NCBI GenBank assembly: GCA_044892505.1
Contig: CM097882.1
Span: 271,374,001 to 271,438,000, forward strand
Direction of reading: 5' to 3'
Length of the DNA stretch: 64,000 bases
Origin: Schmidtea nova
Lineage: Eukaryota
Numbering within the stretch: position 1 is the stretch's first letter; each line of letters opens with the position of its first letter. This document shows positions 37,701 through 63,599 of the stretch, piece after piece. Under the pieces are notes generated by a model that did no database searches, was not told where the DNA came from, and saw only the letters and a list, made by a program, of their open reading frames with translations. A program made the translations under genes and the position numbers.

Positions 37701-40304
37701 TCTTTTTATTTTTTTGTGTAAATATTTCAGAAAACAATTATTTATTAAAAAGATTTTAAAAGGCTGTGTAGAATGTTCACTTTTTTAAAATTATAGTTCT
37801 AATAATTATTATATTAGTAAATAGTTTTTTAAAAAGTCCCTCCTTCACTTTTTACATAAATATTAAGAAAAGTACATAACATTTCAAAATATACCAACAA
37901 CTTCAATAATGCCAGAATTCACATATAAAAGGTTAACGTACCAAAAGTAAATTTTCTATTATAAATCAAACTCACTTTGAAAGGCAGGACGATCCTGAAT
38001 GGTCTGTTAGACGGACTCAATCAGTATAAATACTGAACCGAAAATCAGTGAGATATACCGAATTTTGTGAACTAGTCTTCAGGTCGACTTTACTGATCTT
38101 GAATTATTAATTTGGAAACTTTCGTTAGAACGAACCTTTGAGGATCGATAATTAAATTTTATTTTGTTGTATTAAATGTTATATGCTCCCATGATATTAT
38201 TCAATAATATATTATTTCATAATGTTGATTTTATGACCAATTTAGTAAAGTGTCCTCTGTAGCTCACGCTGCGAGGTTTCTATCCATCTCCTAGGGGTTT
38301 CTTAGCTCCGCAAGATAATGAGTACATTTAACAACAATGCTAACATGCAACTTTGTAACAATAGATAGCTAAAATGATTTTTGATAGTTTCAGGAGGAGC
38401 ACTGTAAATAGGAGGTTTCGGTTAGAAATTCATAGATAATTTTTTAGACATCACTGCACTGGAATGCATTGGATAGTGCCAAGGGCCATAAGGTTCGTAG
38501 CTAAATGGAAATTTTATGAGGGCAGAGTATTGATGAAAGTCTAAATTCGTCTAGGAATCATGCAATACATTTCTTAGGTTGATAATAGGCTCATTCGCAT
38601 TTTATACACTATTGTCGTAAAAGGAATAATCGAATACCTGTTGGGGACCCAATTAATTATCATTAATACAAGTAAGGGAGGATTGACGAGTTGGACGGAG
38701 GCGCTTGGTTTATTTTTTACAGTAAGATAGTAAAAATTTCCTTTTGCAAATAAAACGAGAAACGTCGTCATTAGCGCAACTTTCGTAGCTCGAGGTAATG
38801 ACGAAAGGTGTGTAGGCCAGCCAGCGGTAAATGGAAAGGTCATGTGTACAATTTTCGGGATTTCAATTTAGGGAACCAAGGACGGGTAAAAAAGATTCGA
38901 CATATCTCCACCAGACAGTAGCGTATGTGGATGCAAGTCAGTCATTGAGGCGGACGTCGATAATTATTAAATTCACCTATATGGAATTTTACAGAAATGC
39001 AATAAACCTGGCTGGAAGAGAAACAAAATCAAAATACACGACGATATCAGCATTCATTCTCAATCTGGATGAGCACAAAGGACGAAATATGGCATCATGT
39101 GGGATTCATTGTCCAATTCCAATGGGATCCACGTATTCACCACAATACGCTAGTTTACTGATCATCATCAAGAACAAACTGCAGCGACTAATTTATTGGG
39201 GCTACATTTCCCAATCTGAAATCCATGCACTTGTGTTGGTGTTGCTTCGCCCTCCTTGGTCACTCCGAAAACTTCAGAAAGTGAAATTTGATAGATTATC
39301 AAAATCGATAATGCGACAAAAACCCATCCGACTTGGACTACAAATTCAACTGATTTTTGCGTGGAATTCCACGTTATGCTTCGACTAAAAAATAATCATG
39401 TTGAGTGTATCAAATATATGTCTTCTTTCTTTGTGCGAAGTTGTCCGATTTAGTGAATGAATATAGGAATTTTCAGATGATTGACTGTTACTAAGTAAAA
39501 TTTAGTTTTGTTTATAATTCTATTTAAATAAAGAGTTAACTTCATGTTGAATAGAAGTATCTATATCATTTCAGTGTGTCAAAATATCAGGGAACTCGTG
39601 ATGCAATTACAAAGGCTTGAAATACTCAGAAAGGTCATGAACGAGAGATCGAAAACTGTAAGGCTCAGGTAATCAAAATCAGTACCTGCGTCAAACTCTG
39701 TTTACGCTGGTTTAAATGAAAACAGATTAGGCTCACGGAAAGAGCCAAACGAGCCGTCACCGAAACACAATAAGAGCTCGAGGCAACATAAATAGAATTA
39801 CGAAAATTCCGTAACTCGGTCACTTGATCGTTGGTTGAGAAAGAGTTAAAGGCTTGCATCCGACCCATCACGTTGCAACAATACACCGATCAATTAAATT
39901 TGACGATTTTATTGAAAATTAAATTATTATTTTATGTCAAATTTAAAAAAAAATTTAAATAAATTTATTTTATCACAAAATGTTTACTCTAAAAATAAGA
40001 TTTTATTAATTTACTAAAATTTGATAAATTTTTATTTGGTGGGTTTTTTGATTGTCAATATAACTTTGACGTTGCCCTGGCTCCCATCAACAACTCAACA
40101 CATAAAACATTAGTCAAAACAATCTTGTTGCCCGTCACAATGTAACGTTGGTAGTGCAACAAATGGGTAGATGTATGCAAACAGTGATCGTCTATAAATC
40201 GAAAATATGATTGACCGAACATTACAGTGGGTATCAAAAATATTATATATATATATATATATATATATTATCATAATTATCTTTTTTCACCTTTGATCTT
40301 TTTT

Positions 40305-40485
40305 TATTATTATTATCAATAATTCTCATAATGACTATAGATCAAATTATTTTATAAACAATAACACAATATTTCGGCACAGCCTTTATCAAGTGTGTAC
40401 ACACTTGATAAAGGCTGTGCCGAAATATTGTGTTATTGTTTATAAAATAATTTGATCTATAGTCATTATGAGAATTATTGATAAT

Positions 40486-40492
<7 letters not shown>
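40305..40492. repeat. Perfect 188 bp palindrome (94 bp arms, no spacer) flanked by (TA)n
   Basis: Checked base by base, centre between 40398 and 40399 (GTGTGT|ACACAC). Confidence 0.95.
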
Positions 40493-40521
<29 letters not shown>

Positions 40522-41667
40522 AATTATTATTTTACTTAAAATATTAAATAAATTTAAAATATGCTAAAATAGCTTAAATTTATAGTTTAAAAAACTCACC
40601 AACTACCTGAATTAAATGTCTTTGTTGCTCTTAATTACAGACTGTATGTGTAATATAAATTATTGATCTTTATATTTATTTATAAATGGAAAAATAATCA
40701 AAATAGATCAAAAATAAATTATTTAAAGTTTTATTCAAGTTTTATTTAAAAATATTAATTTGGTTTTGCGTAAAATTGTTAAATTTAATTTTGAAATAAT
40801 CGAAAATTTTTTCTGGAACTATTTGTTTTAATACATCAATGGAAGCAACACGCAGAACATTATATAAATACCAACATCAAAATGAAAGTCATTCAGAAGT
40901 TGCCAGGATTTTCTGTAAGATTTTCTCGAGAATTTCTTTTAAAAATTTACTGAACATTTCCAAAAACTTGCATATTGCCACAGGGCGAAACAAAACTCTA
41001 AATATTTTATCAACTGGTAAGAACTTCTAACTGTAGAAGCCGCCGCAAAACAACTAAAGTTCTACCTAAGGCGAAACGTTAAAACTCTGCTCGTTCAACC
41101 GGAAGAGATCATATTTAAGAAACTTTCCATAATTGCAAAGTCTTCCAACAAACAAGAATAGATTCGTACCATACAAGTTCATAAACTTTAAAAGAAAACT
41201 AAAAGTTATTGCCGACATGAGAATACCCGTACACGCACTATTGTAAGAATCTTTGTTTTATTTATTAGGTATGGGGCTTCCAAAGTCAAGCCCTTTGATC
41301 GTTCCAAAACCCAGTAGTTATTAATTTAAATATTGGATGATATTTTGTTTCTTGTGTAAAATTTATGTATTCGAATTTTTAAATTATATTTTATGCTTTT
41401 AAAATTGCTTTTATTTCCGAATTAAAACCATTTTTGATTAACTTTAACTGATACAAATTTGTCACAATAACCTATATTTAAATATTATGCAAAGACTAAA
41501 TAAATCCTATTATCCTCCGTACATTCTGAAGTCAGTCCAGCCTCGAGCTGTACTGATGGGCGATTCAAAGTCTTTTATAAGGGAACAATTCCTACTGAAT
41601 AGTTCTGGAGCCTCGGCCGATTTATATTAGGTCCCGCTCCAGCAGAAAAATCAATGGATATCCCTTA

Positions 41668-42729
41668 TGTTAGGGTTCGAGATCAAGGGATCTCGGGTTT
41701 TTGTAATTAAATATTATAAGTAAATAAATAAATATAAATAGCAATTAAGAATTACTATAAATAAATAGATAAATAGTAATAGTAAATAAATAATTACTAT
41801 AAATAAATATAGATTAAATATAGTAATAATTAAATAGTATATAATAAATATAGTAATAAATAAATACATGATACATTTAAATAATAATAATAAGTTATAT
41901 ATAGTAATAATAAATTACTTTAAATAAAAATATAATAGATATTTTTAAAGGTCATGATTAGTATGACCACCACCGCTTTATTTTCAACGTAGTAGTAAAC
42001 CTACTATCGCTTAAAAAAATTATATATATACTGATTGCAAAATCAGTTGAGGAGAAAAATTAATTTTTGAGCAGAAGAATTACGAGAAGTTCAGAGCAGA
42101 ACATAAGTGTTTACAGAATAGTGAATTTGAGAAGTTTAGTTCAAAGTTAAATTTGCGTGGAGAGAATAATTTTACAGAATTTCATTTGTGATAATTTTCC
42201 GAAATTGGAATAATCTTTGAGCAAATTATTAGCTGGTAAATTTTCTAGTTTGTTTTAATTCTATAAATCGATCACGGGGAAATAGTTATATTACTATTTT
42301 TCCCCTTCAGTAAAGTCGTTAAATAATAAATTATTAGAAGGGAAATTATTAGGTCACAGTGACAACCATTTCTGGGTTGTCACTATCGCGATTAAACTAC
42401 CGGGAATCCCTCGTCTTTTGTCCTTTCATTTAGTCGGAGCTGTTGAGCCTTTTAGGTCCAGCTTTCGTTCTTAAACTCTGAGGACGGTTTGTATAACCGA
42501 TTTTCTAACTTTTGCTTTGCAGCTATTTTATTATATTGTACATTGTTATACATATTTCACAATAAATTTTATTAAAACGAATTAGTTTTGTATTCTTTAC
42601 ACCCAACCTAAAACATATATTTTATTTATAATTAATAAGCGGATTATCGTTTGGAGTCCGATAATCAAATTAAAGTTTTAAATATATATACTTTCTGTGT
42701 TCGTCGTAACCACTGATACGAACCGAACA
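41668..42729 (+). repeat. 5' LTR
   Basis: Direct repeat of 55563-56624, with five substitutions seen by eye. AT-rich low-complexity U3, TATA-like run at about 42021, TCAGTT initiator-like motif at about 42045 and AATAAA at about 42561. Confidence 0.97.
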
Positions 42730-42732
42730 TTT

Positions 42733-42750
42733 TGGTGAGCCCGGCGTGAT
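42733..42750 (+). promoter_or_regulatory. Primer-binding site, tRNA-Trp
   Basis: TGGTGAGCCCGGCGTGAT matches 16/18 positions of the standard Trp PBS TGGTGACCCCGACGTGAT, 3 nt after the LTR. Confidence 0.85.
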
Positions 42751-42821
42751 ACAATTATTATCAGTGGGCATATTGTCATATATACAAAATAGCTCCTAAA
42801 AAGTTAAAAGTTGTGGAGGAC

Positions 42822-45800
42822 ATGGCTGAAGAGAATAATGTTTTTGCTAGATATCCCGCTTTACCTGTCAAGGCATTTAGCGGAGATCCAGGAGAATTTC
42901 CGGAGTTTATGTCAGAGTATTATCAGATGGCAAAGGCCTATGGGTATCCAGATGCAATAATGATACAAAGACTGCCAATTTACCTTAAGGGTATGGCAAG
43001 GGAAAATTACAACGATATTATGGCGTTACCAGCAGCAGATAAACCAGGTACATGGGAAAAGATGAGAGAATCACTAACGGCTAGAATATTACCGGGAGAT
43101 TCAAGTAGAATTTTCCGACAACAATTTTATCACAGGAAGCAGAATGCAAATGAACATGTAGGAGAATTTTCCTATCAATTATTGTTATTAGCAGAAAGAG
43201 CATTTGGACTCAGAACTACCTGGAATGATGCAACTAAAGCTATGGTTAAAGACCAATTATTAGCTGGATTCACAAATGTTATGAGAAATGCATTGATTCT
43301 CCACACGGGAGATGATTTTTGGGAATTAACAAGAAAAGCTGTCGTAATCGAAAGCAGCTTAGAAAAGGCTACCTCATTTATGGTAAATAATGAGAAACCA
43401 GCAATTGAATGTTTTAACTGCCATAAGAAAGGGCACATATCAAAAGATTGCCACAGTAAGAAGGTAGCTGATACTCGTAGGGGTATTCAGTGTACTAAAT
43501 GTGGTATGAATAATCATAGTGTTGAGAACTGTAGAGTCACGAACTTGCAGTGTGATAAATGCAAACGCAGAGGGCATGTGGCTTCCGTTTGTAGAGTTAA
43601 AATTCTCCCCACGAATGGGAATTTTAATATAAAAAGGGATGATGTTAATTCATCAGGAAAGATAAAATGTCACGGATGTGGAAAATTCGGGCATATTCTG
43701 AGGTCGTGTCCTCAAAATCAGAGTAATAATACGAATAATAGGACTACCAATAGTGGTAATATCAGCAAGCCAAAAACTACGTTCATGGTCAATCACGATA
43801 AAGAATTGACGTATTTGCAACAACTGGAAATGGAAATCCAGGAGGAGAAAAATCGATTAGCACGGCTAATGGATCGAGATGATACAGTTTTTATGATTTC
43901 AGCTGAGAAAAATCATGCTCACACAGATGAGCGAGGAACAGTTTTGATGAATACAATTGAAGAAATAAATGAGACTCACACAGTTGGGCAAGAGACAGTT
44001 TTTATGATTTCAGCTGAGAAAAATCATGCTCATATGGATGGGCGAGGAACAGTTATAATGAATCCCATTGAGGAAAGCGATGATGCTCACACAGTTGGGC
44101 AAGGAACAGTTTTGATGATTTCAGCTGAGAAAAATCATGATGCTTACACAGACGAGCAAGGAAATAGTGAACTCATGGATTCCAGCAGCGAGAATCATGA
44201 GGTAATAGAATCAGAAACAAATTCTGATAATGATGACGAACCCAGTATGAGTACCATACTGAGCGAGTTCGACCAGGCTTTGTTCAAGGAAACAAAGGCC
44301 AAGAAAGGGTCAGATACCCTAGCAAAATGTTTAAAACTGGTGGATTCCAGATATGAGTATCAGCAGAGACTGACTCGAGAATTAGAGAAATTATCACAAG
44401 GTGATATCAAGAATAGTGAAATTGGAAAGATATTACAGTTAATATCTCAGGTCGAAGATGATCCAAGGTATCATAGCGACATACATAAAATCCTACGAAA
44501 GATAGGAACTGCAATGGAACATGAATGGGATCTTCAGGATTCGCATTTAAACATAAAACTTCCTCAGGAGCAGGAGTTTAACATCGACATGAATGTAAGA
44601 TGTCGAACAGATAAGTTGTCAGATACAGTGATGAAATTGAAACTTAATAGATATGATTTTTATCTATATGGAGAAAAGTTAGTAGTTGGGGAAACACTAC
44701 TACAAAATGGTGTATTACCAGGAAGGGTAACGAAACTCACAACGAAACTGACAGGAATATCGGTCCCAGTAGTGGATCAAGACAGTGTGTTTCTACTCAC
44801 ACAAATGGAAATTGCACAGTTGGAGGAAGTCCAACAAATAGAGCAACGTCTGAAGATAGAGTTGCAGAAATCTCCGAGGGATGCAGAAACAATCAAGGAA
44901 ATATTAGACTGGATGTTGGTATTGCGCATACCAGTAGAATCATTGGAGAATATAATTCCTATTCTACTACCTGTAGCAAAGGAAACTAGTTCATTTCAAA
45001 CGGAAATAAAAATGTTAATGAGGAAAAATGGAACAGCAATACGTCATCAAGCACATCGACAAGGCATGATAACTTTAGACCTTCGAATATCGGGAAAAGA
45101 ACCCATGACGAGATTATATCGCTGTTTTAGCAAAGTGATAACGTTGAGAAAAGATTTAATAGATACTGGGCAGACTACCGGTATATTCTTGATTATGATT
45201 CATGGAGGGCAAGTGGATGATGATGAATATTTAGTAGATGTGGGATGTCTACCATTTGAAACGACAACAGTAGCAATCATTCCCGTAGAGCCACCTGAAT
45301 CTCAATGGTCAGCATTACGGTTACCAGATGAAATGGTCACTGGTAATGTTGAAACACAACCATTTAATGTAGATATCGATGCCGATAATCACGGAGAAGA
45401 GGAAATCAGACTCAATAATGAGGAAACTAACGTGGGAGCTTCAAATTCTCGGGCGGTAGAAACTGTCAGGCCAGCATGGCAGATAAAGAAAGATAGGCGA
45501 GGAAGGCCTAGGAAAGATCAAATGAAACCTCCACCAACGGAGCAATTAAACCAAGAAACCATTAAACAGGTTCAGATGAAAACCCTGTCAGGAATAGCCA
45601 GGGATGTTGATATGAGAGACGAGGGTGTACATATACCAGAAAAATCTCTGACATGGAAGAGATTAAAACAGATCATAGGAATATTAAAGCCGGAATGGCA
45701 GATCACTCGGATTAAAGGAATTCAAGTGGATAAAGTGACACAGTCAATCGCGAAGACGATGAGGAGATTACCTAAAGGGGTACCGCAAAACGAGATACAG

Positions 45801-48356
45801 AATATGTTAGAGACACTCATACAAGATGGGTTATCTAAAGGAAAAATAGTGACAGCATTATCTATGTTGATTCAAGATGCCTTAGCCCGCGCAGGCAATG
45901 AGAAGAAACTTATTAATCGAGAAATAGACCAGATCACGGAGATAACGGAGCATTATCTCGGAACGTGGATGAGTGAAAATAACTTCTGGGAAGAGGAGAA
46001 ACATAAACTACGATATGAATTCGTGGAAAAGGCTATGAATAACAACCACCTCGGAAATGGAGGAATGGGGAATATGACGAATATGATATTAATGTTTTTA
46101 GTAATGATGGGAATAATGAAACAGACAAACACAATGACAGCGTTTGATTGCAGTGATCCAAAGTTAGCTCGGATATATTCGCTAGTAGATGCAATTGAGT
46201 GCAAAGAGGCATACCCAGAGAAAGTCCAAACAGGAGAAAAGGTCGAATACTATGTTTATCAAGAAAGTGAATTCTTCAGAACTAAGATAAGAGAATGTAG
46301 AGTCCAAAGAGCGACATTTGAATATTATTGTGGTTCACACAGCTATACAGCCTTTCTATCAGCCACTCTAATACCCAGACCTGTCAACATATTGCCAGAA
46401 GATTGTCTTGACGCCTTTCGAAAAGGTACTTTAAGAATCGATAACGAGGTAACCATCGCCGCGGAAGTAGGAAAAACATTGGGAGTAACCATTACACGAG
46501 GAGGATCAATCGGATCAGATGGTACCTGTTCGGGAAGAAAGAAAACTCGCGGATCGGAGTTGGTAAGTTTTGTCGTAGATATTGAGGACTATTCAATCGA
46601 ATTAAGAGAATACGAAGGGACGTTCGATGTATTATCAGGAAGATTAATGGCACACCCTCAGTGCCTTGCGAAATTTGGAAGCTGTAGAACAGGGGTCATT
46701 ACATTATTATACGATCAAATACTAGACCATTGCGAATTGTCATTACTAAAGAAAATTAATTTCCATAAGTTGAACGGGACAAAGTATCGAGATTTACCCA
46801 AAAGAGAAAGAATTTGGGATAAAGAAAAGACGTTGAAAAGGATCAACAAACAGCAAAAAGAGGATATTAGTGAGGAAATCACACCTCTAGTATTAGTATC
46901 AGAAGATAAGAAAGATGCAATCAGATTTGTCAGAAAAGATAAGAAGACAAAATGCGGAAAAGTGGTGTATGAGACCAACTATAAAGGATTATATTTGTCA
47001 AAAACATTTATCCAAAAGGCCAAGAATATTCACAGCCAGGATATCAAAATCACGAACTATATAAATAATAAAATAGATTATTTATATCATGATCTGCAAG
47101 GACAAATGCAGGAAATGTATCAGGAAGTAATACTTAATGATTGCAAACTAAATCGCGAAATAGTTCGAAATCGGTTAGCGATATCAATCGTGAATCCGGA
47201 TCTAGTGACACCTATGTTGCTAGAAGATGGAATGTTTGGCAGAATTATGGGGGAAGCTATATACAGCTATCAATGTCAACCCATAGAGGTACAATTAACA
47301 CGGTACAATGAATGTACTCTAGAATTACCAGTGTCATATCAAAACAAAATACGATTTGTAATGCCAGTAACGAGGAGACTTTTGGATGAAAAACAAAAGC
47401 CTCAACCTTCAATTTGCAATCCAGCAATATCACCGTTATACAAGGTAAATGATAGATGGATCTCATTACCTGACAGAAAACCATCTAATAGAAAGGTGGA
47501 AACATTGGAAGTCACGAAACTCGAGGAAAACATGGAATTTAAATCACTCGATGAATTATCACAAGGAGGAATTTACACTCCAGTAGACATTGAGGAGGCA
47601 AGACAGACGTTGCTATTTCCTCAAGTAAGAGAAAGAGGTATCACTGAAATCATAAGAACAATTTACCAAGCAAACGAAATGAGACCAGATTACAATTTAT
47701 TATTCGGTCCAGATCATTATAAAGAAGCAGCTAAAAATGTGATGATGAAAATATGGGGAAGGTTTACCAATTTTGGTATATTCGTGGCAGGCTGCTCAGG
47801 AATATATGCAATATTCGTAATTCTAAAGTTAATAATAACACAATTAATTTCCACATACAGCATATTCAAAATCGGTGGATGGTCTTGGAAGTTGATACTA
47901 GGATTGTGTCCTATGTGTGCGGAATTTGCATTGTTTAAACATCATCGTAAAGAAATAAAGACAATCAAACAGAGAAGCTTGGTTAAACACGAGATTATTG
48001 GAATCGAAATGGAGGGTAATACAAGTTATCGGGACGATAACAATTCGGAAGGAGGAGGTAATGGAGACTCTCTTAATACAGTTCAGAGGCAAAGTAGAAG
48101 TCGAAAAAGAAACTACAATAAAAAACCGAATCATCAATTAAGGAAAATGAAATATCGGGATTATCAACCACCTTACGAAGCGACAAAACAGATTTTCGAC
48201 AAAAGTATGATTTCAGAAGATGAATACGATAGTGCAGACCAGAAATTTGCAATCAATACAGCATCACCTAGATTGAAAAGAAGCCCAAGATATATGCAAT
48301 TGCCATATCTTAGAAGCTTACCAACAGCGCCAAAGGGGGAATCGCCAGAGTTTTAA
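42822..48356 (+). CDS. Gag-Env polyprotein, 1844 aa: capsid, 4 CCHC knuckles, 37-aa repeats, two Ubl-like domains, AT-hook, signal peptide, chuvirus-like glycoprotein, TM, basic tail
   Basis: Uninterrupted ORF. Knuckles at 43410-43709, RGRPRK at about 45498, hydrophobic signal at about 46086-46120, AFDC...YYCGSHS...CG...NKIDYLY...CKL...GEAIYSYQC...ELPV cysteine pattern and TM at about 47772-47870. Confidence 0.93.
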   Translation: MAEENNVFARYPALPVKAFSGDPGEFPEFMSEYYQMAKAYGYPDAIMIQRLPIYLKGMARENYNDIMALPAADKPGTWEKMRESLTARILPGDSSRIFRQQFYHRKQNANEHVGEFSYQLLLLAERAFGLRTTWNDATKAMVKDQLLAGFTNVMRNALILHTGDDFWELTRKAVVIESSLEKATSFMVNNEKPAIECFNCHKKGHISKDCHSKKVADTRRGIQCTKCGMNNHSVENCRVTNLQCDKCKRRGHVASVCRVKILPTNGNFNIKRDDVNSSGKIKCHGCGKFGHILRSCPQNQSNNTNNRTTNSGNISKPKTTFMVNHDKELTYLQQLEMEIQEEKNRLARLMDRDDTVFMISAEKNHAHTDERGTVLMNTIEEINETHTVGQETVFMISAEKNHAHMDGRGTVIMNPIEESDDAHTVGQGTVLMISAEKNHDAYTDEQGNSELMDSSSENHEVIESETNSDNDDEPSMSTILSEFDQALFKETKAKKGSDTLAKCLKLVDSRYEYQQRLTRELEKLSQGDIKNSEIGKILQLISQVEDDPRYHSDIHKILRKIGTAMEHEWDLQDSHLNIKLPQEQEFNIDMNVRCRTDKLSDTVMKLKLNRYDFYLYGEKLVVGETLLQNGVLPGRVTKLTTKLTGISVPVVDQDSVFLLTQMEIAQLEEVQQIEQRLKIELQKSPRDAETIKEILDWMLVLRIPVESLENIIPILLPVAKETSSFQTEIKMLMRKNGTAIRHQAHRQGMITLDLRISGKEPMTRLYRCFSKVITLRKDLIDTGQTTGIFLIMIHGGQVDDDEYLVDVGCLPFETTTVAIIPVEPPESQWSALRLPDEMVTGNVETQPFNVDIDADNHGEEEIRLNNEETNVGASNSRAVETVRPAWQIKKDRRGRPRKDQMKPPPTEQLNQETIKQVQMKTLSGIARDVDMRDEGVHIPEKSLTWKRLKQIIGILKPEWQITRIKGIQVDKVTQSIAKTMRRLPKGVPQNEIQNMLETLIQDGLSKGKIVTALSMLIQDALARAGNEKKLINREIDQITEITEHYLGTWMSENNFWEEEKHKLRYEFVEKAMNNNHLGNGGMGNMTNMILMFLVMMGIMKQTNTMTAFDCSDPKLARIYSLVDAIECKEAYPEKVQTGEKVEYYVYQESEFFRTKIRECRVQRATFEYYCGSHSYTAFLSATLIPRPVNILPEDCLDAFRKGTLRIDNEVTIAAEVGKTLGVTITRGGSIGSDGTCSGRKKTRGSELVSFVVDIEDYSIELREYEGTFDVLSGRLMAHPQCLAKFGSCRTGVITLLYDQILDHCELSLLKKINFHKLNGTKYRDLPKRERIWDKEKTLKRINKQQKEDISEEITPLVLVSEDKKDAIRFVRKDKKTKCGKVVYETNYKGLYLSKTFIQKAKNIHSQDIKITNYINNKIDYLYHDLQGQMQEMYQEVILNDCKLNREIVRNRLAISIVNPDLVTPMLLEDGMFGRIMGEAIYSYQCQPIEVQLTRYNECTLELPVSYQNKIRFVMPVTRRLLDEKQKPQPSICNPAISPLYKVNDRWISLPDRKPSNRKVETLEVTKLEENMEFKSLDELSQGGIYTPVDIEEARQTLLFPQVRERGITEIIRTIYQANEMRPDYNLLFGPDHYKEAAKNVMMKIWGRFTNFGIFVAGCSGIYAIFVILKLIITQLISTYSIFKIGGWSWKLILGLCPMCAEFALFKHHRKEIKTIKQRSLVKHEIIGIEMEGNTSYRDDNNSEGGGNGDSLNTVQRQSRSRKRNYNKKPNHQLRKMKYRDYQPPYEATKQIFDKSMISEDEYDSADQKFAINTASPRLKRSPRYMQLPYLRSLPTAPKGESPEF

Positions 48357-51300
48357 AAGACATCAGGAGAAGGCAAGTCAAGTTATGCTTTAACCATACC
48401 AAGAAACAAAATGTACATTTCTAAACATCAACAAATTCTCGACAAAGAGGCTCGAGAAACAGGTAAAAGCATATCATTATCGTTAGAAAATGAAGGGAAA
48501 CTGTATCCTATCGAGTCGTTAGAAGCAATAAAAGCAAAATTCAAGGAATATAATCCAAAATTGAGTGATACCGAACAAGATGAAGCAGAGAAATTCAGAG
48601 CAAATACCATCGGGATAACGCATGCTACTATTTTGATGGCAAATGGGGTGAACTTGGATAAGAAACCCATGATAAAGATAAAAATAAACTGACACACAGT
48701 TAATGCAGTGATAGATTCAGGAGCAGACGGCACCATCATAGAGGCAACACTATTAAATCAAAAAGAATTGGAATCAATGGAAACCTCTAGAGTTTCGCTA
48801 ACAGGTGCTACAGGCACATCATTGAATATTATCGGTACTCTAGTTTGCAACATCAAGCTATGTGACCAAGAATTTCGTCATGATATTATAGTCATGAGAA
48901 CTTGTCCAGTAGAATGTCTACTAGGAATGGATCTTTTAAGAAGATTAAAAGGAGTTGTGTTCGATTGTGCTACCGGATTGTTAGTTAGATCAATCGGTAA
49001 GAAAAGAAAAGTTTATAATGATGATACAGTTTTCATCGATCATACGATGATAATACCACCAAGAGCAGAAACAGTATGTTTCGTGTCCACTAGCGAACAG
49101 TGGGAAGGAGAAGTTGTATATTCGAACCAGATGAAAGGTTCTCAGCAAAATATAATCTACCAATTACGCATAGCGTTGGTAAAGTTGAAAATGGCAGAAT
49201 ACCAATTCGGGTAGCCAATTTAGATATAAAACCATTAAAATTGTACCCAGATACAAGAGTAGGGAGAGTATCAAAGTCGGATCAATTACCGATTGGGGGA
49301 TCTGTCCTGACAGTGAAGGCAGAGAATAGAGAACCAGACATCGAGTACTATGATGCGCCAACGGCAAATAGTAAAGCTCTTTCACGAAGAGAGAATATTC
49401 AAGTAAACATGTTGTTAAGAAAATATGATCAAGTATTCGCCAAGCACGAATATGATCTGGGAAAGACGAACTTGTTGGAACATGAAATTGTTCTTAACAA
49501 TACGAAACCAATAAAACTGAGACCGTATCGAATTCCGTTTAGCTTGGAAGAACCTGTCGATAAGCAGGTAAAACTGATGTTAAAACATAACATCATCAGG
49601 CATAGTAAATCACCATACCAGTCACCAATGATAGTGGTGGCAAAAAAGGATGGAACAGTACGACTATGCAACGACTATCGAATGGTAAACGAAGCAACTT
49701 GCAAGGATAGTCACCCATTACCATTATTGGATTACATTTACGGACGCATGAGAAATTCAAAATATTTCTCAGTGATGGATGCTCAGAAGGGATTTTACCA
49801 AATCAAGTTAAAAGAGGAGACAATACCAATTACGGCTTTTTCTACAAGCCTTGGACACTTCGAATATACAGTAATGCCATTTGGTCTTACAGGAGCGCCG
49901 GCAACGTTTCAAAGAGCCATGAATCTAATGTTAATGGATGTTCATCATGCAATGGTATACATAGATGACATCATTGTATTTTCTCCAGATTTGGAAAAAC
50001 ATTTAGAACATTTAGAGGACGTATTCAAAAGGTTAATTAATGCAAATCTTAAGGTAAAACCATCAAGATGTAAATGGGCCGAATCAGAAGTAGTCTATGT
50101 CGGTCACATTATCTCGAAGGATGGAGTAAAACCAGATCCAGCAAATGTTGAGAAAGCAAAGAATTTTCCAGAGTCAAAGACAGTCAAACATATTAAAGGG
50201 TTTTTGGGCTTAGTGGGATATTACAAGAAGTTCATCAGAAACGTTTCGGCCATAGCGTTTTCTCTGACACAATTAGAGGGAACAAATGTCAAATTTGTAT
50301 GGGGAAAAGAGCAACAGGGAGTATTTGATATGCTAAAAAGGATGCTCGTGGAACCTCCCATATTACGATTTCCAAATTTTTGAAAAAAAACTTTTGGTCA
50401 TGACAGACGCCAGCACTCGGGGTATTGATGCTGTGTTAGGTCAAAGAGATGACCTACGCGATGAATATGCCATAGTGTAAGCTAGCAGAGGATTGAAACC
50501 GCATGAAAAGAATTATGTAGTTATTGAATTAGAGGCATTTGCAATCGTTTATGCTATCAATCAATTTAGGACGTATTTATGGGGTCGAAAGATCATTGTG
50601 TATACGGATCATAGACCATTACAGTGGTTAACAAAGCATACTATGGATACATCAAAATTGGTTAGATGGGCATTGATCTTGCAGCCGTACGACATCGAAA
50701 TACATTACCGAAAAGGACATCAAAATGGGAATGCAGATGCATTTTCTCGAATGGACCAGGGTGATGAAGCAGAAGACGTTAAGGAAGGAAGATTAGAAGG
50801 AACAATCTTCGCACTTACAAGAGAAGCAAACAGACTCGCGGATTTAATGGCAGCACAACAATCGGATGAAGAGATAAACCAAATCAGACAGGCTTTAGAA
50901 GCAAAGTTCATACCGACGGAATTTAATAAATATTGGGAGAAAAATCGAGACAAATTTATCCTAGAAGAAGGATTAGTCAAATATGTGGATGTAAGGGATA
51001 ATGTCATAATGGTCCCTAAGAAATATCGGGAAGCCTTGATGTTACAATATCATGATGGAGCACTGGGAGGGCATTTATCTTCCAGGAAAACATTGTCAAG
51101 GTTGAAGCAGAAATATTTCTGGCCGACAATCAAACAAGACGTACAGGAATGGTGTCAGACATGTAAGATCTGTATCACCAGGAGAAATACGGGGAAGAAA
51201 CCTCATGTGCCAATGAAACCAATGCCAGTACCATCCACACCGATGGAAATGACGGCGATGGATATTTTAGGGCCATTCAAAGAATCAAATAGTGGTAACA

Positions 51301-53093
51301 AATACATATTGGTATTTTGCGATTACTTGACGAAATGGCCGGAGGCTTATCCGATACCGAATCACAAGGCAGATACGATAGCCAGGATTTTCGTAGAGCA
51401 AATTGTTTTTAGGTATGGAGTACCTACAAAACTACTAACAGATAGAGGAGCAGATTTCATGAGTAATCTGTTAAAAGGAATAAATGATTATTTCGACATT
51501 TTAAAACTGAATACCTCTCCATACCATCCACAAACAGACGGATTGGTAGAGAGATTTAACGGAACGCTCGCAAATATGCTAGCATCATACGTAAATTCAG
51601 GGCAAACGGATTGGGATATACATATTCCATCATGCCTATTCGCATACAGAAATGCTGTTCATGAGGGTACGGGACAAACGCCGTTCTATCTCATGTATTT
51701 AAGGCAAAGTAAAATGCCTATAGACTTGTTGTTTTTCCCAAAAGCAACGCAGTATCTAGACCAAGAAGATTACCTCATGGAAATGAGAGAAAGAATGCAA
51801 GAAGCATGGACAAAAGCAGGTCTTAGTATAAAATTCAGTCAGGAAGCGTCGAAAGATTATCATGATAAGAAAGCCAAAGGACATGGCATGTTAGTTGGAG
51901 ATAAGGTGATGTTAGAAAGCCATTATAATAAAAAGGGCTTATCACCTAAATTAATGAGAAACTTCAAAGGACCGTATGAGGTTTTGAGAACCACAGACAC
52001 GAATTTAATCTTGCAATTAGTAGCAAATAGAAAAGCTGAACCAATAATGGTACATGCTAACAGATGCAAGAAAGTTGCGGTCACGGAGAAAGATCCGATT
52101 AAGAAAAAGGAGGATAAAGGGTCAGAACCAGTCTCAGACAGATATCCATTACGATCAAGAAGCGTGCCAAAATCAGTTACGTTTTTGGTAATAATAAGTT
52201 GCCTTATATCCTGTGTAAAGACATTTGTTCCAACAGCGGTACAAATTCAAGATCTCGCATTTAGAAGATCTTTCCAGGAATTTAGAATAATATCATTAGC
52301 TGAAAATGATACCAAATTCAAGTTCTCGTTTTGCGAACGACGTTGTTTCCATTTTACATTGGATTCAAACACAAGAGTGAAAGTCATAAAGGACTTACGA
52401 GCAGAAAAGGAATATTTATTAGATATACTTGTTCAACATTTTATGTTCGGACGATGGTCAGATTTTTCAAAGTCACAATGGAAGCTGAAGACAGCAGATT
52501 TCAAAAGGAAAGTTAGAATAAATATCCAACAAGGTATGATTACCTTCAGCCAACCAAAACAAGGAGTGGATAGAGTAAAGATAGAAATCCATTCCGACAA
52601 GGAAATAGTACAAGAATTGTGGCTAAATGAAGATATTGAGAAACAAAATCTCAAGTGGAACAGCTCAGTGGAGTGGGAAGCTCATATCACTTATATGAAT
52701 AATAAACAAAAGCCCGGAGTCGATGAATGGAATGAGGTATTTTATGAAGTAATCTCTTTGAAATTACCACAATCATCGACGACAACGAAATCGGTTACAT
52801 CAATTATACGGAAAGAAAGTTACGTCATTCATCCTGCAATATGGCAGAGATTGAAAGGATTGAAAATGGTAAAACCAACAGTATCAACAGAAAGCTATAT
52901 TAAAAGTTGTCAGTGTGAAATTAACGAAGTAAACCCCATTACTCACTTGGGAAAATTACCCGTTGGGGTATGGATTATTACGTCAGCAGTATTATCTATG
53001 ATCACTACATTAATAGCAATGGGGGTTTGGATGAAATTATTCTTCAGTCAGGCTATTGAGTCGGTTGATGGGATTATGATGACGAGATTATGA
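48357..53093 (+). pseudogene. pol (PR, dUTPase-like linker, RT, RNase H, integrase) plus in-frame C-terminal membrane protein; four lesions
   Basis: IDSGADGT, RLCNDYR, YIDD, TDAS, ELEAFAIV, YTDH, HHCC, DILGP/TDRG/VERFN and GPYEV. Lesions: TGA 48690, -1 nt near 49108, +1 nt near 50381, TAA 50478. Confidence 0.93.
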
Positions 53094-53207
53094 CAATTAC
53101 AGATAAAATCACATATTTGTATTTATATATATATTAAAATCTATAATCTTGTTGAGCTCCGAGTAGCATTAACTTACAGCATAAGTAGATCCCGTAAATC
53201 GAGATTT

Positions 53208-55268
53208 ATGCATTTCTTTTTAGCCAATATTGGCATATCAGTATATCTGATATTAACGTTAATTATTTTTCTTTCAGATATGAAGCATCAAGTGTCACAA
53301 TACAAGCAGCGTTACAGCACTATCGATGTGCAAACAATACAGAAGGAAAAACTGATTTATCGAAACATCGAAAAAGCGATATCCGCAGAAGCACGGAAAG
53401 GTCGTCGCTATTGGTATTACGGGCACTGCACCGGCATCCCGAACAATTTTAAGTTTCTTGGATCACCTAAGAGACAAATGTGCATAGTCACAATTACCAG
53501 CCGTGAGAACACCCGGTTGACTGAACACATGGCGGAATTTAACAGATCAACATTTACTCACCATCTCCTGATTCACGCGATCAATAAACCCTTTACAATC
53601 TTCATGGCAGGAGCCACAGGACCTATCCTACTTCAACCAGAATCAACTCTAGAAATTAGTAACGGAGATGGCAGAGAAAAGAATATCTCCATCCAATGTG
53701 AAGGATATAATACCATTGTGGTATTAGAGATTTTGGAACCCAGCAAGGCAGTGCAATCATTGTGGAAAAATGAACCTGCCTGGACCTATAATGTGAATGA
53801 GAACGATCTCAAATCATTCAAATCCTTTGTTCGGATGAATCTGCACCCCAATCAAGAAGATAGGTTGTCAATATTTATTGCAGCGCATTACGCAACTTTG
53901 CGAGATTATTTAAAGCCAGCTTTGGTGGCTGTTTCGATAGCAAACTACTGTGGTGATTTAATACTAAACACGGTGGTTACACCCAGAAACCAGGTCAAAC
54001 ATTACCAATCGCACGCGCATGGTATGACCGAAAAAGAAATCATCGGACAATTTGACGGAGAGGATTGCGCAGACCGTATTAGGAAATTATGTGATGGGAA
54101 AATCCTAATAGGTCTCCAAGTCAACGATTTCTTGGAAGCAGTCCAGTTACACCCTCAACGAGTTTTGGGAATTAGAGAACTAGGAGCAGCAAAATGCCTG
54201 GAAGCGAGAGAACTAAAGAAATGTAACGGACATTATCGACTCGCGTATTTATCAAAGTCAATTCTCGAAAAGGAAGAACTAAACCGTTCAGATCTGAAAA
54301 CGGAAAATGACGTGGAAACGACACGTAATATTTACCTTAAACTGAGAGAAGTTTGGGTAGATGACATCACCCCAGGTAATCGTAGTGGGACGATTACATC
54401 AGAAGTCAAAATGGTTCATACAATACAGCCACAAGAAACGAGTAAAAGGAAAGCTATTGAGAGCTTACCCCAGGAACAGCCATTATCAACCAAATTGCAA
54501 AAGATAGTTGAGGAAGAATCACTATCCCCTCCAGCTATATCCTTAGCTGATGAAGACGATTACGCCACCTGCGAAAGCGAGGGTGAGGAACAAACAGAGA
54601 TGCGTTTAACTTTACACGGAGACAGCCGTACAAAGATCGTGCCAGAAAATCCACCAAAGAAAGAGAACAAGCTCTTGGAAAAAGTTACTAAGACTTTTCA
54701 AAAATTGACTTCAGTAGAAAAGTCATTCCCAAAGAAAAGTCAAGAACCTGTTGTAAGGTTACAAGATCTAAAGATCAAGAAGAAAGTACCAAATCTCCTC
54801 TCGACGGAAGACAAAGATTTAATCGAAACAGCATTCGTTCCACCCGATATGGAACAGATTCCTGAGGTTAAGGGCGAACCTATCATTATAAGAGAAGGGG
54901 ATTTCGTTGGAACGGGAAACTCAGCAAAGATACCCCAGGATTTGGACAATGAAGACCCTAGTTTTTGGCAGCGACCAGAGAGAAATTGGGTACCTCGGAT
55001 AAAAGAATACGACGGGAAACCGGTACACCAATCATCAGTTTCAAACTTCCCTTACTATGGCGTATTGGAGGCCAACGGAAAATCATACGTGATTTCTTCT
55101 TTGGTATATAAGGAAGTTGAAACACGTGAAACATTGGTGGTCAGCTATAGACCAGATATAGTGGAAGATCGCATCAGGAACGAACAAGCGCATATTCGCA
55201 AGAGAGCAGCTCAAAACCTATTCGCGAAGGATAACAAGCATTGCTGCTACGTTCAATCCAAGGTCTAG
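53208..55268 (+). CDS. Accessory ORF3 with a degenerate DEDDh (REXO4/ISG20-like) exonuclease domain at about 53859-54356
   Basis: LVAVSIANYCGDLILNTVVTPRNQVKHYQSHAHGMTEKEI...KILIGLQVNDF...ENDVETTRNIY aligns by eye with REX4 ARVSIVN.G....D..VKP...V.DYRT.VSGI...ILVGH.L..D...EDA.....LY. Possible alternative start at ATG 53280 after TTTCAG. Confidence 0.75.
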   Translation: MHFFLANIGISVYLILTLIIFLSDMKHQVSQYKQRYSTIDVQTIQKEKLIYRNIEKAISAEARKGRRYWYYGHCTGIPNNFKFLGSPKRQMCIVTITSRENTRLTEHMAEFNRSTFTHHLLIHAINKPFTIFMAGATGPILLQPESTLEISNGDGREKNISIQCEGYNTIVVLEILEPSKAVQSLWKNEPAWTYNVNENDLKSFKSFVRMNLHPNQEDRLSIFIAAHYATLRDYLKPALVAVSIANYCGDLILNTVVTPRNQVKHYQSHAHGMTEKEIIGQFDGEDCADRIRKLCDGKILIGLQVNDFLEAVQLHPQRVLGIRELGAAKCLEARELKKCNGHYRLAYLSKSILEKEELNRSDLKTENDVETTRNIYLKLREVWVDDITPGNRSGTITSEVKMVHTIQPQETSKRKAIESLPQEQPLSTKLQKIVEEESLSPPAISLADEDDYATCESEGEEQTEMRLTLHGDSRTKIVPENPPKKENKLLEKVTKTFQKLTSVEKSFPKKSQEPVVRLQDLKIKKKVPNLLSTEDKDLIETAFVPPDMEQIPEVKGEPIIIREGDFVGTGNSAKIPQDLDNEDPSFWQRPERNWVPRIKEYDGKPVHQSSVSNFPYYGVLEANGKSYVISSLVYKEVETRETLVVSYRPDIVEDRIRNEQAHIRKRAAQNLFAKDNKHCCYVQSKV

Positions 55269-55550
55269 CAATAAGCTATGACAACTATCAATCAAACAAT
55301 TAGCATTTCGGCTATGTGATCAACAATCCAACTCTTACAGACAGTTATTATTTGATATCGATTGTGATCAACATTACTTATGTATTATGCGTTTTATGAG
55401 ACTCATTTGTTTTATGTGATTTATTTTAATTTTTATTGACCAGGTGCAGTCAATGTATATATATGCATGTGTTGTTATTTTATTTTTTATTTTATGGCTG
55501 CGTAACCTTCTTGTCTTTTCCGCTTTAATTTTCGGGACGAAAATCTTGTT

Positions 55551-55560
55551 AGGGGGAAGA
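55551..55560 (+). promoter_or_regulatory. Polypurine tract
   Basis: AGGGGGAAGA, 2 nt before the 3' LTR. Confidence 0.88.
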
Positions 55561-55562
55561 CA

Positions 55563-56624
55563 TGTTAGGGTTCGAGATCAAGGGATCTCGGGTTTTTGTA
55601 ATTAAATATTATAAGTAAATAAATAAATATAAATAGCAATTAAGAATTACTATAAATAAATAGATAAATAGTAATAGTAAATAAATAATTACTATAAATA
55701 AATATAGATTAAATATAGTAATAATTAAATAGTATATAATAAATATAGTAATAAATAAATACATGATAAATTTAAATAATAATAATAAGTTATATATAGT
55801 AATAATAAATTACTTTAAATAAAAATATAATAGATATTTTTAAAGGTCATGATTAGTATGACCATCACCGCTTTATTTTCAACGTAGTAGTAAACCTACT
55901 ATCGCTTAAAAAAATTATATATATACTGATTGCAAAATCAGTTGAGGAGAAAAATTAATTTTTGAGCAGAAGAATTACGAGAAGTTCAGAGCAGAACATA
56001 AGTGTTTACAGAATAGTGAATTTGAGAAGTTTAGTTCAAAGTTAAATTTGCGTGGAGAGAATAATTTTACAGAATTTCATTTGTGATAATTTTCCGAAAT
56101 TGGAATAATCTTTGAGCAAATTATTAGCTGGTAAATTTTCTAGTTTGTTTTAATTCTATAAATCGATCACGGGGAAATAGTTATATTACTATTTTTCCCC
56201 TTCAGTAAAGTCGTTAAATAATAAATTATTAGAAGGGAAATTATTAGGTCACAGTGACAACCATTTCTGGGTTGTCACTATCGCGATTAAACTACTGGGA
56301 ATCCCTCGTCTTTTGTCCTTTCATTTAGTCGGAGCTGTTGAGCCTTTTAGGTCCAGCTTTCGTTCTTAAACTCTGAGGACGGTTTGTATAACCGATTTTC
56401 TAACTTTTGCTTTGCAGCTATTTTATTATATTGTACATTGTTATACATATTTCACAATAAATTTTATTAAAACGAATTAGTTTTGTATTCTTTACACCCA
56501 ACCTAAAACATATATTTTATTTATAATTAATAAGCGGATTATCGTTTGGAGTCCGATAATCAAATTAAAGTTTTAAATATATATACTTTCTGTGTTCGTC
56601 GTAACCACTGATACGAATTGAACA
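55563..56624 (+). repeat. 3' LTR
   Basis: Direct repeat of 41668-42729, followed by TSD CTTA. Confidence 0.97.
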
Positions 56625-56752
56625 CTTACAGTCCCTCGGGAGTGTGCGAGATAGATTCTGACGAAGATTGTTCATCGATTTGTGCTGACGTTAATGTAAT
56701 TGTAGGATATGAAAAATATTAATTAATGTGTTCTTTATTATTCATTTATATA

Positions 56753-60425: not shown

Positions 60426-61575
60426 GGATCAACCTTTTAATTTAATATTAATATTAATATTAATTAATATTTTAAAATTCATTAATATTTTGCAATATAA
60501 ATTAAAAAATCACATTTAAATATTATATTTAAAATCAAAGTTTAATTAAATTGAAGACCGCATTGAAAAAATCTGCTCTGTTATTAAAATAATAACAAAA
60601 TTCATTAAGAAAGTCCTGTCTTTTTTCTGTTAAAACACTTTTTCTTCGTTTGATTTCTAACTTTAATTCATTGTGGAATGATTCGATAGCTTGAGTGTTA
60701 ATTCCATTCCTTTTATTTATAAAGTCATACTTGTGGCAAACTGTGCTATGATAAAAACTGTATTCATCAAGATTGAAGTATGCTTTATGTTCATATGTCC
60801 ATATTACGCTATTATTGGCCACTTGATTACATATGATAGGCACTATTGTTCTTTCTTTCTTGTTTGGTATTGTTACTGCAAATGCTCTTTCAATATTATT
60901 ATTTACCTCCACAATACACAGTGAATCAGTTCTGTTACTAGGAGCCCGGCCACAATGACTTTTGACCTTATAATTAAGCTTGGTATCATCGATTTGTACT
61001 ATTTTTTCAGGCCCCCTAGTTTAGAATTGCTAAAATCAACTCTAGGTATTTTACTTTTTAACCTCTTTATTACCTTTTCAATTGTTGAATCAGAGGTATC
61101 TAATGCTAATTTGATACTAAAAATAAGCTGCCTTGTAGAATATTTTATAATTATTCTTAAAATCAAAGACATCTTAACAGTTAATCCATCAAAAAAAGAA
61201 CCTTTTCTCACCGATTCATAGACTTTGTACCTTTGACAAGCTGGTGTCATACACCTCCAAACAATTTTGTCTATAGATCTTTTACGATCTACCAATTTCA
61301 TAAAGGTATTACATGTACTGCACACATGTTCATTCTTCAAAAATGAGTTTGTCATCAAAAATAAAGCAAGATTTCTTTCGTCCAGTGTTATGCATATTCT
61401 TTCAAATTCATCAGGAGTCATTTAAAGTATTGAAAAATTGACTATTATTTTAATTAATATTAATGAATTAATATTACTTTTTATTTATTTTCGGGGGTTA
61501 AATTAAAAGGATGATTATTATGGGGGTTAAATTAAAAGGTTGATTATTATGGGGGATAAATTAAAAGGTTGATCC
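60426..61575 (-). mobile_element. Merlin (IS1016/ISXO2-like) DNA transposon, 1150 bp
   Basis: 19 bp perfect TIR GGATCAACCTTTTAATTTA, perfect 8 bp TSD GTTAATTT and tandem TIR-like subterminal repeats at 61495-61575. Confidence 0.93.
60535..61421 (-). pseudogene. Merlin transposase, frameshifted
   Basis: Zn ribbon (CSTC...WRC...C), KLGG, VQIDDT, IWTYEHKAY (catalytic D changed to Y) and NTQAIESFHNELK. 1 nt deletion near 61010. Confidence 0.9.
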
Positions 61576-61953: not shown

Positions 61954-63078
61954 ATGTATTATTCTGAATATCCTGAAAATTCAATAGAAGTTGTTTTTCA
62001 TTTAATTATATTTAATTTCATATTTTGCACATTTTCTTGTTAAAAATAATTATTTAAATTTATGCATAAAATTTTTTAAAGGATTTTGATGTATATGAAA
62101 TACTCGGTCGAGGAGGGTTTGCAAGAGTTTATCGGGCAAAATCTCTGAAAACCGACCAAGAAGTTGCCATTAAAATAGTATAGAATCATTTTTTTTATTG
62201 TTTTTAATATTGATTTTGCACTGAAAGATTGATAAAAAAATGATGCACCATCACGGAATGACTGCACGAGTGAGAAAAGAAGTGGAATTACATAGTCGCT
62301 TAAAGCATCCGTCAATTCTCGAAGTAGGATAGATTGTTGATACGTTTTCCCAAAATTTGATATCTATCTATATATATAGCTCTATACGTTCTTTGAAGAT
62401 GCAAATTATGTATATTTAGTATTGGAAATGTGTCACAATGGGGAATTACACAGGAGGATAAGAGAGAATGGCCCATTATCCGAAGATCAAGGTAATCAAT
62501 AAATTATCTATTGTGAAGCACACTGGTCATAATTGCTCTACAACTGAAATAAATATTTTGCAATAATATCAATAATAAATGGTAAATATTTAGCTAGAAA
62601 ATATCTAAAACAAATAATCGATGGATTGAAATATCTCCATTCCTATGACATTCTCCACAGAGATCTCACTCTGGCGAATCTATTGCTGACAAAGGATATG
62701 AAAATAAAAATCGCCGATTTCGGTTTGGCAACACAACTGGAAGCCGGAGTCGAGCATTTCACCATGTGCGGTACACCGAATTATATCTCTCCGGAAGTTG
62801 TAAGCCGATCGAAACAGGGCCTCGAAGCAGATGTCTGGAGTGTCGGTTGCATGCTGTACACAATGCTTGTCGGTAAAGCACCATTCGATACGAAAGAAAT
62901 CAAAGGCACTCTCAATCGGGTTCAGGCCGGCCGGTTTCATATACCCTCGAATATCAGTGACAAGGCAAAAGATTTGATTACCGGATTATTGCAAACGAAT
63001 CCCGACAAGAGACTGAATCTTCAGCAGTTGTCAATTCATGGGTTTATGCAAGCTGGTCATGTTCCGGATTTATTCCAG
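61954..63078 (+). CDS. PLK4: Polo-like kinase 4, kinase domain: join(61954-61989, 62082-62177, 62228-62323, 62380-62491, 62594-63078); continues 3'
   Basis: [84 protein letters not shown]. All exon phases join. Confidence 0.92.
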
Positions 63079-63599
63079 GTATTCATTTATTCATTTTAAT
63101 GTGCTATATATTGATTTTAATGTGCTATATATATTGATTTTATTTGTATTTTATTATTATATGCTGTCAGTTAATTAATTGCTTGATTATTTTAACATTT
63201 CAACTTCTAATGAGACATATCTGCCCCGCTAAAGACAGTACAGACACAACCAATTACATAATAACAAATTTTAAACCCACTATATATAATGAATATCAAT
63301 ATTTTTCGAAATAATTTTGGATCACAAGATGGGGCATTTGTTTTTGAGTCGAATGAAACTAGGCACATTGAGATTGGTCCAGTAGATTACTTGGAATTTT
63401 GAATTTAGTGAAGATCGATAATCGATCCTGAACTTATTTCCATAATAAAAGTATATGGTAATTTTTTCCTTAACAAAAATCGTAAAAAATTTAACTTTTC
63501 ATAATTTTTCAATCAAAAAATGCTATAGGAGAGACTGGGCATGCTTATATTTGACCTTCATAACTTGATTGTAGAAAAATCCTAAAAAACTGTGTAACC

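Follow-up and report, generated by a model that had tools for sequence, protein, structure and literature searches.

The window analysed here is a 64,000-nucleotide stretch of the Schmidtea nova genome (GenBank assembly GCA_044892505.1, contig CM097882.1, positions 271,374,001 to 271,438,000 of the forward strand). At positions 41668–56624 it contains a long terminal repeat (LTR) retroelement of 14,957 bp, which lies on the forward strand together with all of its features described below. The element is a recent, broken member of a high-copy Ty3/gypsy errantivirus family, the unbroken state of which is one Gag-Env-Pol polyprotein encoded in a frame of about 3450 codons. The two LTRs (41668–42729 and 55563–56624; 1062 bp each, TGTT...AACA) differ from each other at five positions, and the target-site duplication CTTA flanks the element on the left (41664–41667) and on the right (56625–56628), in agreement with the original prediction of a young insertion. 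The primer-binding site (42733–42750) pairs with the 3′ terminus of the host tRNA-Trp(CCA), one of the pairs being G:U, and a polypurine tract (55549–55562) lies directly 5′ of the 3′ LTR. TG...CA repeats, a short target-site duplication, a tRNA primer site and a polypurine tract are together characteristic of Ty3/gypsy elements (Metaviridae). One contig of sequencing run X4 joins position 41663 to 56625 and represents an empty site; therefore, the insertion may not be fixed in the host. The sequencing runs, X4 among them, come from one study and possibly from the source sample.

The region 42822–55268 had been described as one frame of 4149 codons. Its extent and phase hold: the first open reading frame (ORF), the protease (PR), the RNase H–integrase (RH–IN) part and the last ORF share a phase, and reverse transcriptase (RT) lies in another one, between a frameshift near 49.1 kb and a second one near 50.38 kb. 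The frame is not open in the window copy, which carries, besides these frameshifts, three in-frame stops (48354–48356, UAA; 48690–48692, recognized by a frame check and by sister copies; 50478–50480, within RNase H) instead of the single UAA listed originally. A genome search with the env region yielded 74 scored matches of 3950 candidates at 97–100% identity, corresponding to multiple near-identical full-length copies, and 26 of the 74 fall in stop-free frames of at least 3400 amino acids. All ten sister copies fetched, which were picked for long frames, are stop-free from Gag through the second membrane protein, a span of 3411–3449 codons closed by TGA CAA TTA; in seven of them reading stays in frame directly past this stop. 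Identity between the window copy and three of its sisters is about 97%, slightly below the copy rule of 98% applied by Chary & Hayashi 2026 (PMC13524379). Since the long-frame sisters lack the UAA at 48354, it is a lesion of the window copy, and the family as such encodes a single polyprotein; the UAA after env was accordingly rejected as a recoding site and does not belong to the layout, contrary to what had been proposed. The remaining architecture was described correctly. A single polyprotein with env before pol is seen more cleanly in the sisters than in the window, and the order Gag, extra domains, fusion glycoprotein, PR-RT-RH-IN, membrane protein, UGA and exonuclease-like ORF agrees with the Pfam and profile matches.

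The same layout recurs beyond the window family. Seven young families were examined, namely the window family (A) and families B, C, D, G, H and I. Polyproteins of families B, C and D comprise 3544–3549, 3395–3401 and 3393–3397 amino acids, and families G, H and I show the same domain order in frames of up to about 3080, 2992 and 3402 amino acids. In all seven, env is found between gag and pol, in frame and at an identical place. A nested insertion of env, or a misassembly over 46000–48400, is thereby excluded for practical purposes: dozens of copies carry env in the same position and frame, no internal LTR or target-site duplication surrounds it, and contigs of three sequencing runs cover all 30 bins. 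In a quick RT tree, which took in 85 of the 128 RT rows, A, B and an older lineage E form one clade with support 100; the database neighbours are all unnamed, so the tree offers no named gypsy clade for placement. Long (AAT)n tracts are present on both sides of three of the four family B copies fetched (flanks of L041–L046), suggesting a target preference of this family for (AAT)n. Families A–D all use tRNA-Trp as the primer tRNA. On genome contig C3, from about 128.02 Mb (L101–L103), tRNA-Trp genes are repeated in tandem with a unit length of about 282 bp; the array pattern gave 1985 matches genome-wide, the first 100 of them all at this array.

The N-terminal part of the polyprotein comprises Gag and additional domains preceding Env. 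Gag (42822–43709) contains a capsid-like domain (Retrotrans_gag, E 0.005) and four CCHC knuckles (zf-CCHC). Two putative ubiquitin/SUMO-like domains follow (44577–44729 and 45069–45260), tentatively assigned by a repeat motif common to both in the family alignment. The window copy has no Pfam match here, and the matches in sister families range over E 0.0015–0.09: the first domain matches ubiquitin (E 0.024) and Rad60-SLD (E 0.0015) in families D and C, and the second matches ubiquitin (E 0.094) in family C only. The linker between Gag and these domains includes imperfect tandem 111/57-nucleotide repeats (43881–44159).

A Bcl-2-like domain (45648–45995) carries BH1- and BH2-like motifs, although the canonical NWGR is not kept. 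Pfam Bcl-2 matches it at E 0.036 in the window copy and at 0.0004 and 0.0012 in families C and D, with no match in family B. In a comparison of the four-family profile with PDB sequences, the best 60 of 117 matches all belong to the Bcl-2 family (best E 1.5e-4), and the four-family alignment places the segment right before the helix preceding Env. A BCL2-like domain before env, as in Burro elements, is thus recognizable, with E-values that are weak and consistent across the families. Of the 150 scored Pfam Bcl-2 matches genome-wide, most lie in frames of many hundred to more than 3000 amino acids, and those Bcl-2-bearing long frames that were fetched are retroelement polyproteins. Element-borne Bcl-2-like domains are therefore likely far more numerous in this genome than host Bcl-2 genes.

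The hydrophobic segment that follows (46074–46130) may act as a tail anchor of the Bcl-2-like domain and double as an internal signal peptide of Env; in families C, D, G, H and I its hydropathy is above the threshold. Env itself (46131–47850) is a class III fusion protein of the HSV-gB/chuvirus type (PF24664, Monjiviricetes-type, E 6e-90) with a C-terminal transmembrane segment recognized by hydropathy (47772–47850). An env of HSV/gB type between gag and pol is a feature of the GAG-ENV-POL errantiviruses. No PDB sequence matched Env, and a word-indexed search for full-length env polyproteins of 3228–5000 amino acids returned none, which is a weak negative.

The pol region has the PR-RT-RH-IN order of Ty3/gypsy elements, as confirmed by Pfam. 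It encodes an aspartic protease with a DSG motif (48693–48965; gag-asp_proteas, E 4e-10), RT with YIDD near 49958 (49094–50380, in the shifted phase between the two frameshifts; RVT_1, E 2e-32), RNase H (50385–50690; RT_RNaseH, E 3e-22) and an integrase with HHCC, core and C-terminal parts (51012–52076; Integrase_H2C2, E 7e-20, and rve, E 1e-8). The interval between PR and RT, where Burro elements have a dUTPase-like domain, contains a conserved stretch, for which none of four sequences gave a Pfam dUTPase match. No −1 slippery heptamer common to four families was evident between gag and pol.

Behind the integrase, a type I membrane protein is fused in frame. It consists of a hydrophobic segment, probably an internal signal peptide (52173–52220; similar segments are found in families C, G, H and I), an ectodomain (52240–52760), and a transmembrane segment (52962–53030), recognized by hydropathy, followed by a short tail. 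This signal-ectodomain-transmembrane unit is kept in all seven young families. An AlphaFold2 model of the ectodomain, built from 19 natural sequences, shows two beta-sandwiches (mean pLDDT 69.7, blocks mostly 79–90 over residues 11–180). The listed Foldseek matches of this model in PDB are all tandem fibronectin type III (FN3) proteins, the best being fibronectin Fn9-10 (E 6e-8); VIA gave Z 9.5 with an rmsd (root-mean-square deviation) of 4.0 over 168 aligned residues, and the Atlas lead was 0.87. The predicted model thus has the tandem seven-stranded beta-sandwiches of FN3 proteins.

As the unit occupies the frame of Env, it would be produced one to one with Env, and we favor an attachment protein. 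A competing explanation is that the FN3 protein is cargo that acts on the host, for instance a cytokine-receptor decoy or an adhesion modulator; we take this as a serious contender, with chances somewhat below even. The fold matches include the receptor ectodomains of IL-12Rb1, Tie2, IFNAR1 and CD45 besides fibronectin, the ectodomain diverges quickly (12–22% identity between lineages), and the described cargo of Burro elements is rich in apoptosis and ubiquitin regulators (PMC6431247). However, conservation of the unit at the same place in seven young families, in the same frame as Env, argues against host-acting cargo.

The last ORF (53280–55268) encodes a beta-rich N-terminal domain, a DEDDh-like domain (about 53860–54360) and a long charged tail. 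Its ten-sequence profile matches ISG20L2 (E 7e-11), ISG20 (E 2e-5) and also SDN1, indicating homology to the DEDDh exonuclease fold of the ISG20/REX4 type. The catalytic pattern D-x-E...D...H...D is not retained in the window family, where ExoI shows A-A-H and the ExoIII His is missing; the catalytic residues are also lost in family B and in older lineages. A motif alignment shows that families C and D retain D-A-E and H...LED. We infer that the protein of the window family is probably inactive as a nuclease. A profile search recovered 973 clusters at E 0.001, of which 35 score 1e-30 or better; among the best 65 clusters, D-x-E is kept in 39 of the 64 that could be scored and is missing from the four closest. 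Ten clusters that were looked up bear no protein name. An earlier word-indexed search found no relatives, a weak negative in view of the 35 clusters that the profile search later gave, and folding of the single sequence gave no usable model (mean pLDDT 33). The N-terminal domain (53280–53800) looks cupin-like, with a Pirin_C_2 match at E 0.13 in family D only.

The polyprotein ends at TGA CAA TTA (53091–53099), a stop codon in the CARYYA context known from tobacco mosaic virus (TMV) as a readthrough signal (PMC4132726). It is followed by a stop-free, A+T-rich spacer with an (AT)n tract (53094–53279) in the frame of the last ORF. The junction was surveyed at 60 loci, with duplicates and rearranged loci excluded: among the 33 distinct copies outside family B whose junction could be assessed, which are not independent of each other, 29 carry the exact motif, three a one-base variant and one neither. 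Conservation extends to copies whose last-ORF identity is as low as about 40–46%, against a background in which CARYYA follows 20 of 6259 stops (0.3%). The frame to the last ORF is intact in 20 of the 29 copies with the motif. Six in-frame spacers of 96–192 nucleotides, picked for being in frame and related to each other, are all stop-free, compared with 1–5% of shuffles, and spacer indels between lineages outside the (AT)n tract measure 3 or 6 nucleotides. The junction thus combines a conserved stop plus CAR-YYA with an in-frame downstream ORF, and a mammalian reporter with CARYYA after UGA showed readthrough of about 15% (PMC4132726). Judging from this conservation, leaky readthrough at UGA-CAA-UUA probably yields an extension carrying the last ORF. 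RNA structure 3′ of the UGA is no better than in shuffles (z −0.89), and we therefore claim no hairpin or pseudoknot stimulator.

Alternatively, the last ORF could be expressed only from a subgenomic RNA, produced by cis-splicing, spliced-leader trans-splicing or an internal promoter, with TGACAATTA being retained as a DNA or RNA element rather than as a recoding signal. A splice-acceptor-like site, a T-rich tract followed by CAG (53266–53277), ends 2 nucleotides before the ATG at 53280. A T-rich tract with YAG lies 2–8 nucleotides 5′ of the last-ORF ATG in the window family, in families B, C, D and I and in older lineages, while such a site precedes only five of the 323 ATGs of the element. 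Furthermore, the spacer contains stops in families B, C, D and I, it has GATTGG and TATA-like blocks in common among families C, D and I, and the nearest database relatives start at the homologous Met. Nevertheless, the motif sits precisely at the stop of the polyprotein and shares the frame of the ORF that follows, its conservation ceases at the sixth base past the stop, and the spacer indels that separate the lineages have lengths divisible by three. We consider it rather unlikely that subgenomic RNA is the only source of the last ORF. As a second route to it, spliced RNA probably exists beside readthrough, and in families B, C, D and I it is the sole evident one.

Other features of the junction vary between families. 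In families C, D and I (L062, L068, L156), the GATTGG and TATA-like blocks are accompanied by a short GT...AG intron-like stretch before the ATG, and the region is a candidate internal promoter. In families G and H, a DEDDh-like ORF in the +1 frame overlaps the final 33–44 polyprotein codons and is open through the A+T-rich spacer in five of seven copies (L148:6917–7200, L149:6810–7120, L152:6930–7180), hinting at frameshifting instead of readthrough. The hydrophobic stretch before the ATG at 53280 of the window copy is doubtful as a true signal anchor, since it overlaps the T-rich acceptor tract.

Collectively, we consider it likely that the element is a GAG-ENV-POL (Burro-like) errantivirus that encodes Gag, a Bcl-2-like domain, Env, Pol and a membrane protein of two predicted FN3 domains in a single frame, to which readthrough would add a probably inactive DEDDh-like protein. 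The alternating hydrophobic segments suggest that the polyprotein may be threaded through the endoplasmic reticulum, as is that of flaviviruses. Gag would stay on the cytosolic side together with the ubiquitin-like domains and Bcl-2, and the helix after Bcl-2 would serve both as its anchor and as the signal for Env. Env would be luminal, its transmembrane segment bringing the chain back to the cytosol for PR-RT-RH-IN; the second internal signal would then export the FN3 pair, and the final transmembrane segment would close the protein. The parts could be freed by signal peptidase and the protease of the element. In such a scheme, membrane fusion would be the task of Env and cell binding that of the FN3 protein, allowing particles to pass between cells, and Bcl-2 would postpone the death of the cell that makes them. 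Most ribosomes would stop at the UGA, and those passing it would make smaller amounts of the pseudo-nuclease, which most plausibly could be an RNA-binding factor shielding the RNA of the element.

Several observations weigh against this interpretation. Translation of one frame should yield Gag, Env and Pol in equal amounts, and no shared slippery site that would give an excess of Gag was found; the scheme does not account for the stoichiometry. The Bcl-2 and ubiquitin-like matches fall under the curated Pfam cut-offs, and the presumed anchor/signal helix before Env is under the hydropathy threshold in the window family and in family B. The FN3 assignment comes from a predicted model of 19 sequences, with a Z of 9.5 that is modestly above the range the tool calls common. 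The ectodomain has no Pfam match, its best PDB sequence match (gp130, E 0.19) is not significant, and the ectodomains of families G and H are not matched by the ectodomain profile (E 0.03–0.2). At the junction, nine of the 29 motif-bearing copies do not keep the frame, mostly through (AT)n-tract differences or decay. The readthrough context is missing from families C, D, G, H and I and also from family B, a member of the window family's own RT clade. A T-rich tract with YAG stands just 5′ of the last-ORF ATG in every lineage examined, and readthrough is therefore not required to explain this ORF. Finally, the hydrophobic spacer, once translated by readthrough, could direct the nuclease-like domain to the wrong membrane face.

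To our knowledge, retroviruses and errantiviruses carry one envelope gene. If the proposed scheme is true, a second surface protein in the same frame would split binding from fusion, as in paramyxo- and herpesviruses. We can speculate further, while regarding the full statement as unlikely to hold, that planarian GAG-ENV-POL errantiviruses may be two-glycoprotein enveloped viruses, with a class III fusogen and an FN3 attachment protein made within one membrane-threaded polyprotein including Gag and Pol. They would also encode an RNA-protecting DEDDh protein, live or dead depending on the lineage, dosed by UGA readthrough here, possibly by a +1 overlap in families G and H, and by a separate RNA in families B, C, D and I.

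Outside the element, the window contains fragments of other mobile elements and host-like ORFs. A near-perfect palindrome of 103 bp without a spacer (40296–40501) lies inside an element resembling a miniature inverted-repeat transposable element, with imperfect inverted ends at 39892–39971 and 40711–40790. Fragments of a hAT transposase (29304–31268, reverse strand) include zf-BED, DUF4371 and the dimerisation domain, and an integrase fragment from another element is found at 8634–9281 (forward strand). An ISXO2-like transposase fragment (60538–61020, reverse strand) is one which we take to be of Merlin type. Host-like ORFs on the forward strand encode a translation-factor GTPase (33243–33782), a NIF phosphatase (34866–35972) and a protein kinase (62548–63096).

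Comparison with published elements concerns both the layout and the extras. The original prediction took the lineage to be independently evolved and did not decide whether the layout had been reported. Planarian Burro elements with in-frame env, BCL2 and SUMO-like domains have been described (PMC6431247), and GAG-ENV-POL errantiviruses are in print from nematodes, bryozoans and flatworms, with Sacco 2022 credited (PMC13524379). By eye, 73 of the first 107 aligned Env residues are identical to those of the published Smed_errantivirus_4, a close relative. Together with the Burro-type cargo, this match points to a planarian host. The headline layout is therefore already in print, and we regard an unreported, independent enveloped lineage as very improbable, even though the 15-kb form lacks the MATH, BIR and ankyrin domains of Burro (Pfam) and GAG-ENV-POL elements are not monophyletic (PMC13524379). 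Smed_errantivirus_4 and the flatworm GAG-ENV-POL "ancient errantiviruses" are multi-copy like the window element and likewise have env of HSV/gB type between gag and pol. The main text of PMC13524379 is silent on readthrough, polyprotein, Bcl, ubiquitin, exonuclease and fibronectin, the cargo not being annotated there. Smed_errantivirus_4 may well carry such extras too. The extras matter if they hold; the layout itself is not new.

The nematode NERVs (Sacco et al. 2022), reportedly with one continuous gag-env-pro-pol ORF and other accessory ORFs, have nematode hosts and share env before pol with the window element. The giant gypsy-like Burro/GYPSM1 elements of planarians are similar in having one polyprotein that comprises a Gag with several CCHC knuckles, a Ubi2/SUMO-like domain (putative in the window element), a BCL2-like domain, a mononegavirus-like Env in frame and PR-RT-RH-IN (PMC6431247). 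However, Burro exceeds 30 kb and encodes 4873–5140 amino acids (PMC6431247), compared with 15 kb, LTRs of 1.06 kb and about 3450 amino acids here. MATH, BIR, ankyrin and Smc find no Pfam match on the ORFs of the window element, and the FN3 membrane protein, the DEDDh ORF and readthrough are not mentioned in the text section of PMC6431247. The window element is thus outside Burro in the strict sense. Being young and numerous, the compact families offer a simpler route than the 30-kb Burro to the question of particle formation and interference with cell death raised in PMC6431247. Our literature searches found no description of the FN3 protein, readthrough or DEDDh ORF in such elements, although figures, the sequence files of PMC13524379, Repbase or Dfam may show some of them; a term search of PMC13465017 likewise gave none. 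As far as these searches reach, the FN3 membrane protein within the polyprotein, the conserved readthrough context and the live or dead DEDDh ORF are apparently new.

In having CAR-YYA directly after a stop and then another ORF in the same frame, the window element resembles TMV-type readthrough and soybean SIRE1, listed as a retroelement with a stop between pol and env (PMC2194720). Unlike SIRE1, the window element belongs to gypsy rather than copia, the stop is UGA, the downstream protein is DEDDh-like rather than env, and readthrough is predicted. The rotifer elements Juno and Vesta also have an ORF resembling 3′-5′ exonucleases of the DEDD superfamily (ORF3) downstream of pol; theirs is RNase D-like (DEDDy; PMC5408684), whereas that of the window element is DEDDh and ISG20L2-like. 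From the cellular ISG20L2, ISG20 and REX4 proteins, the window ORF differs in its extra N-terminal domain and in the loss of the catalytic residues in its clade.

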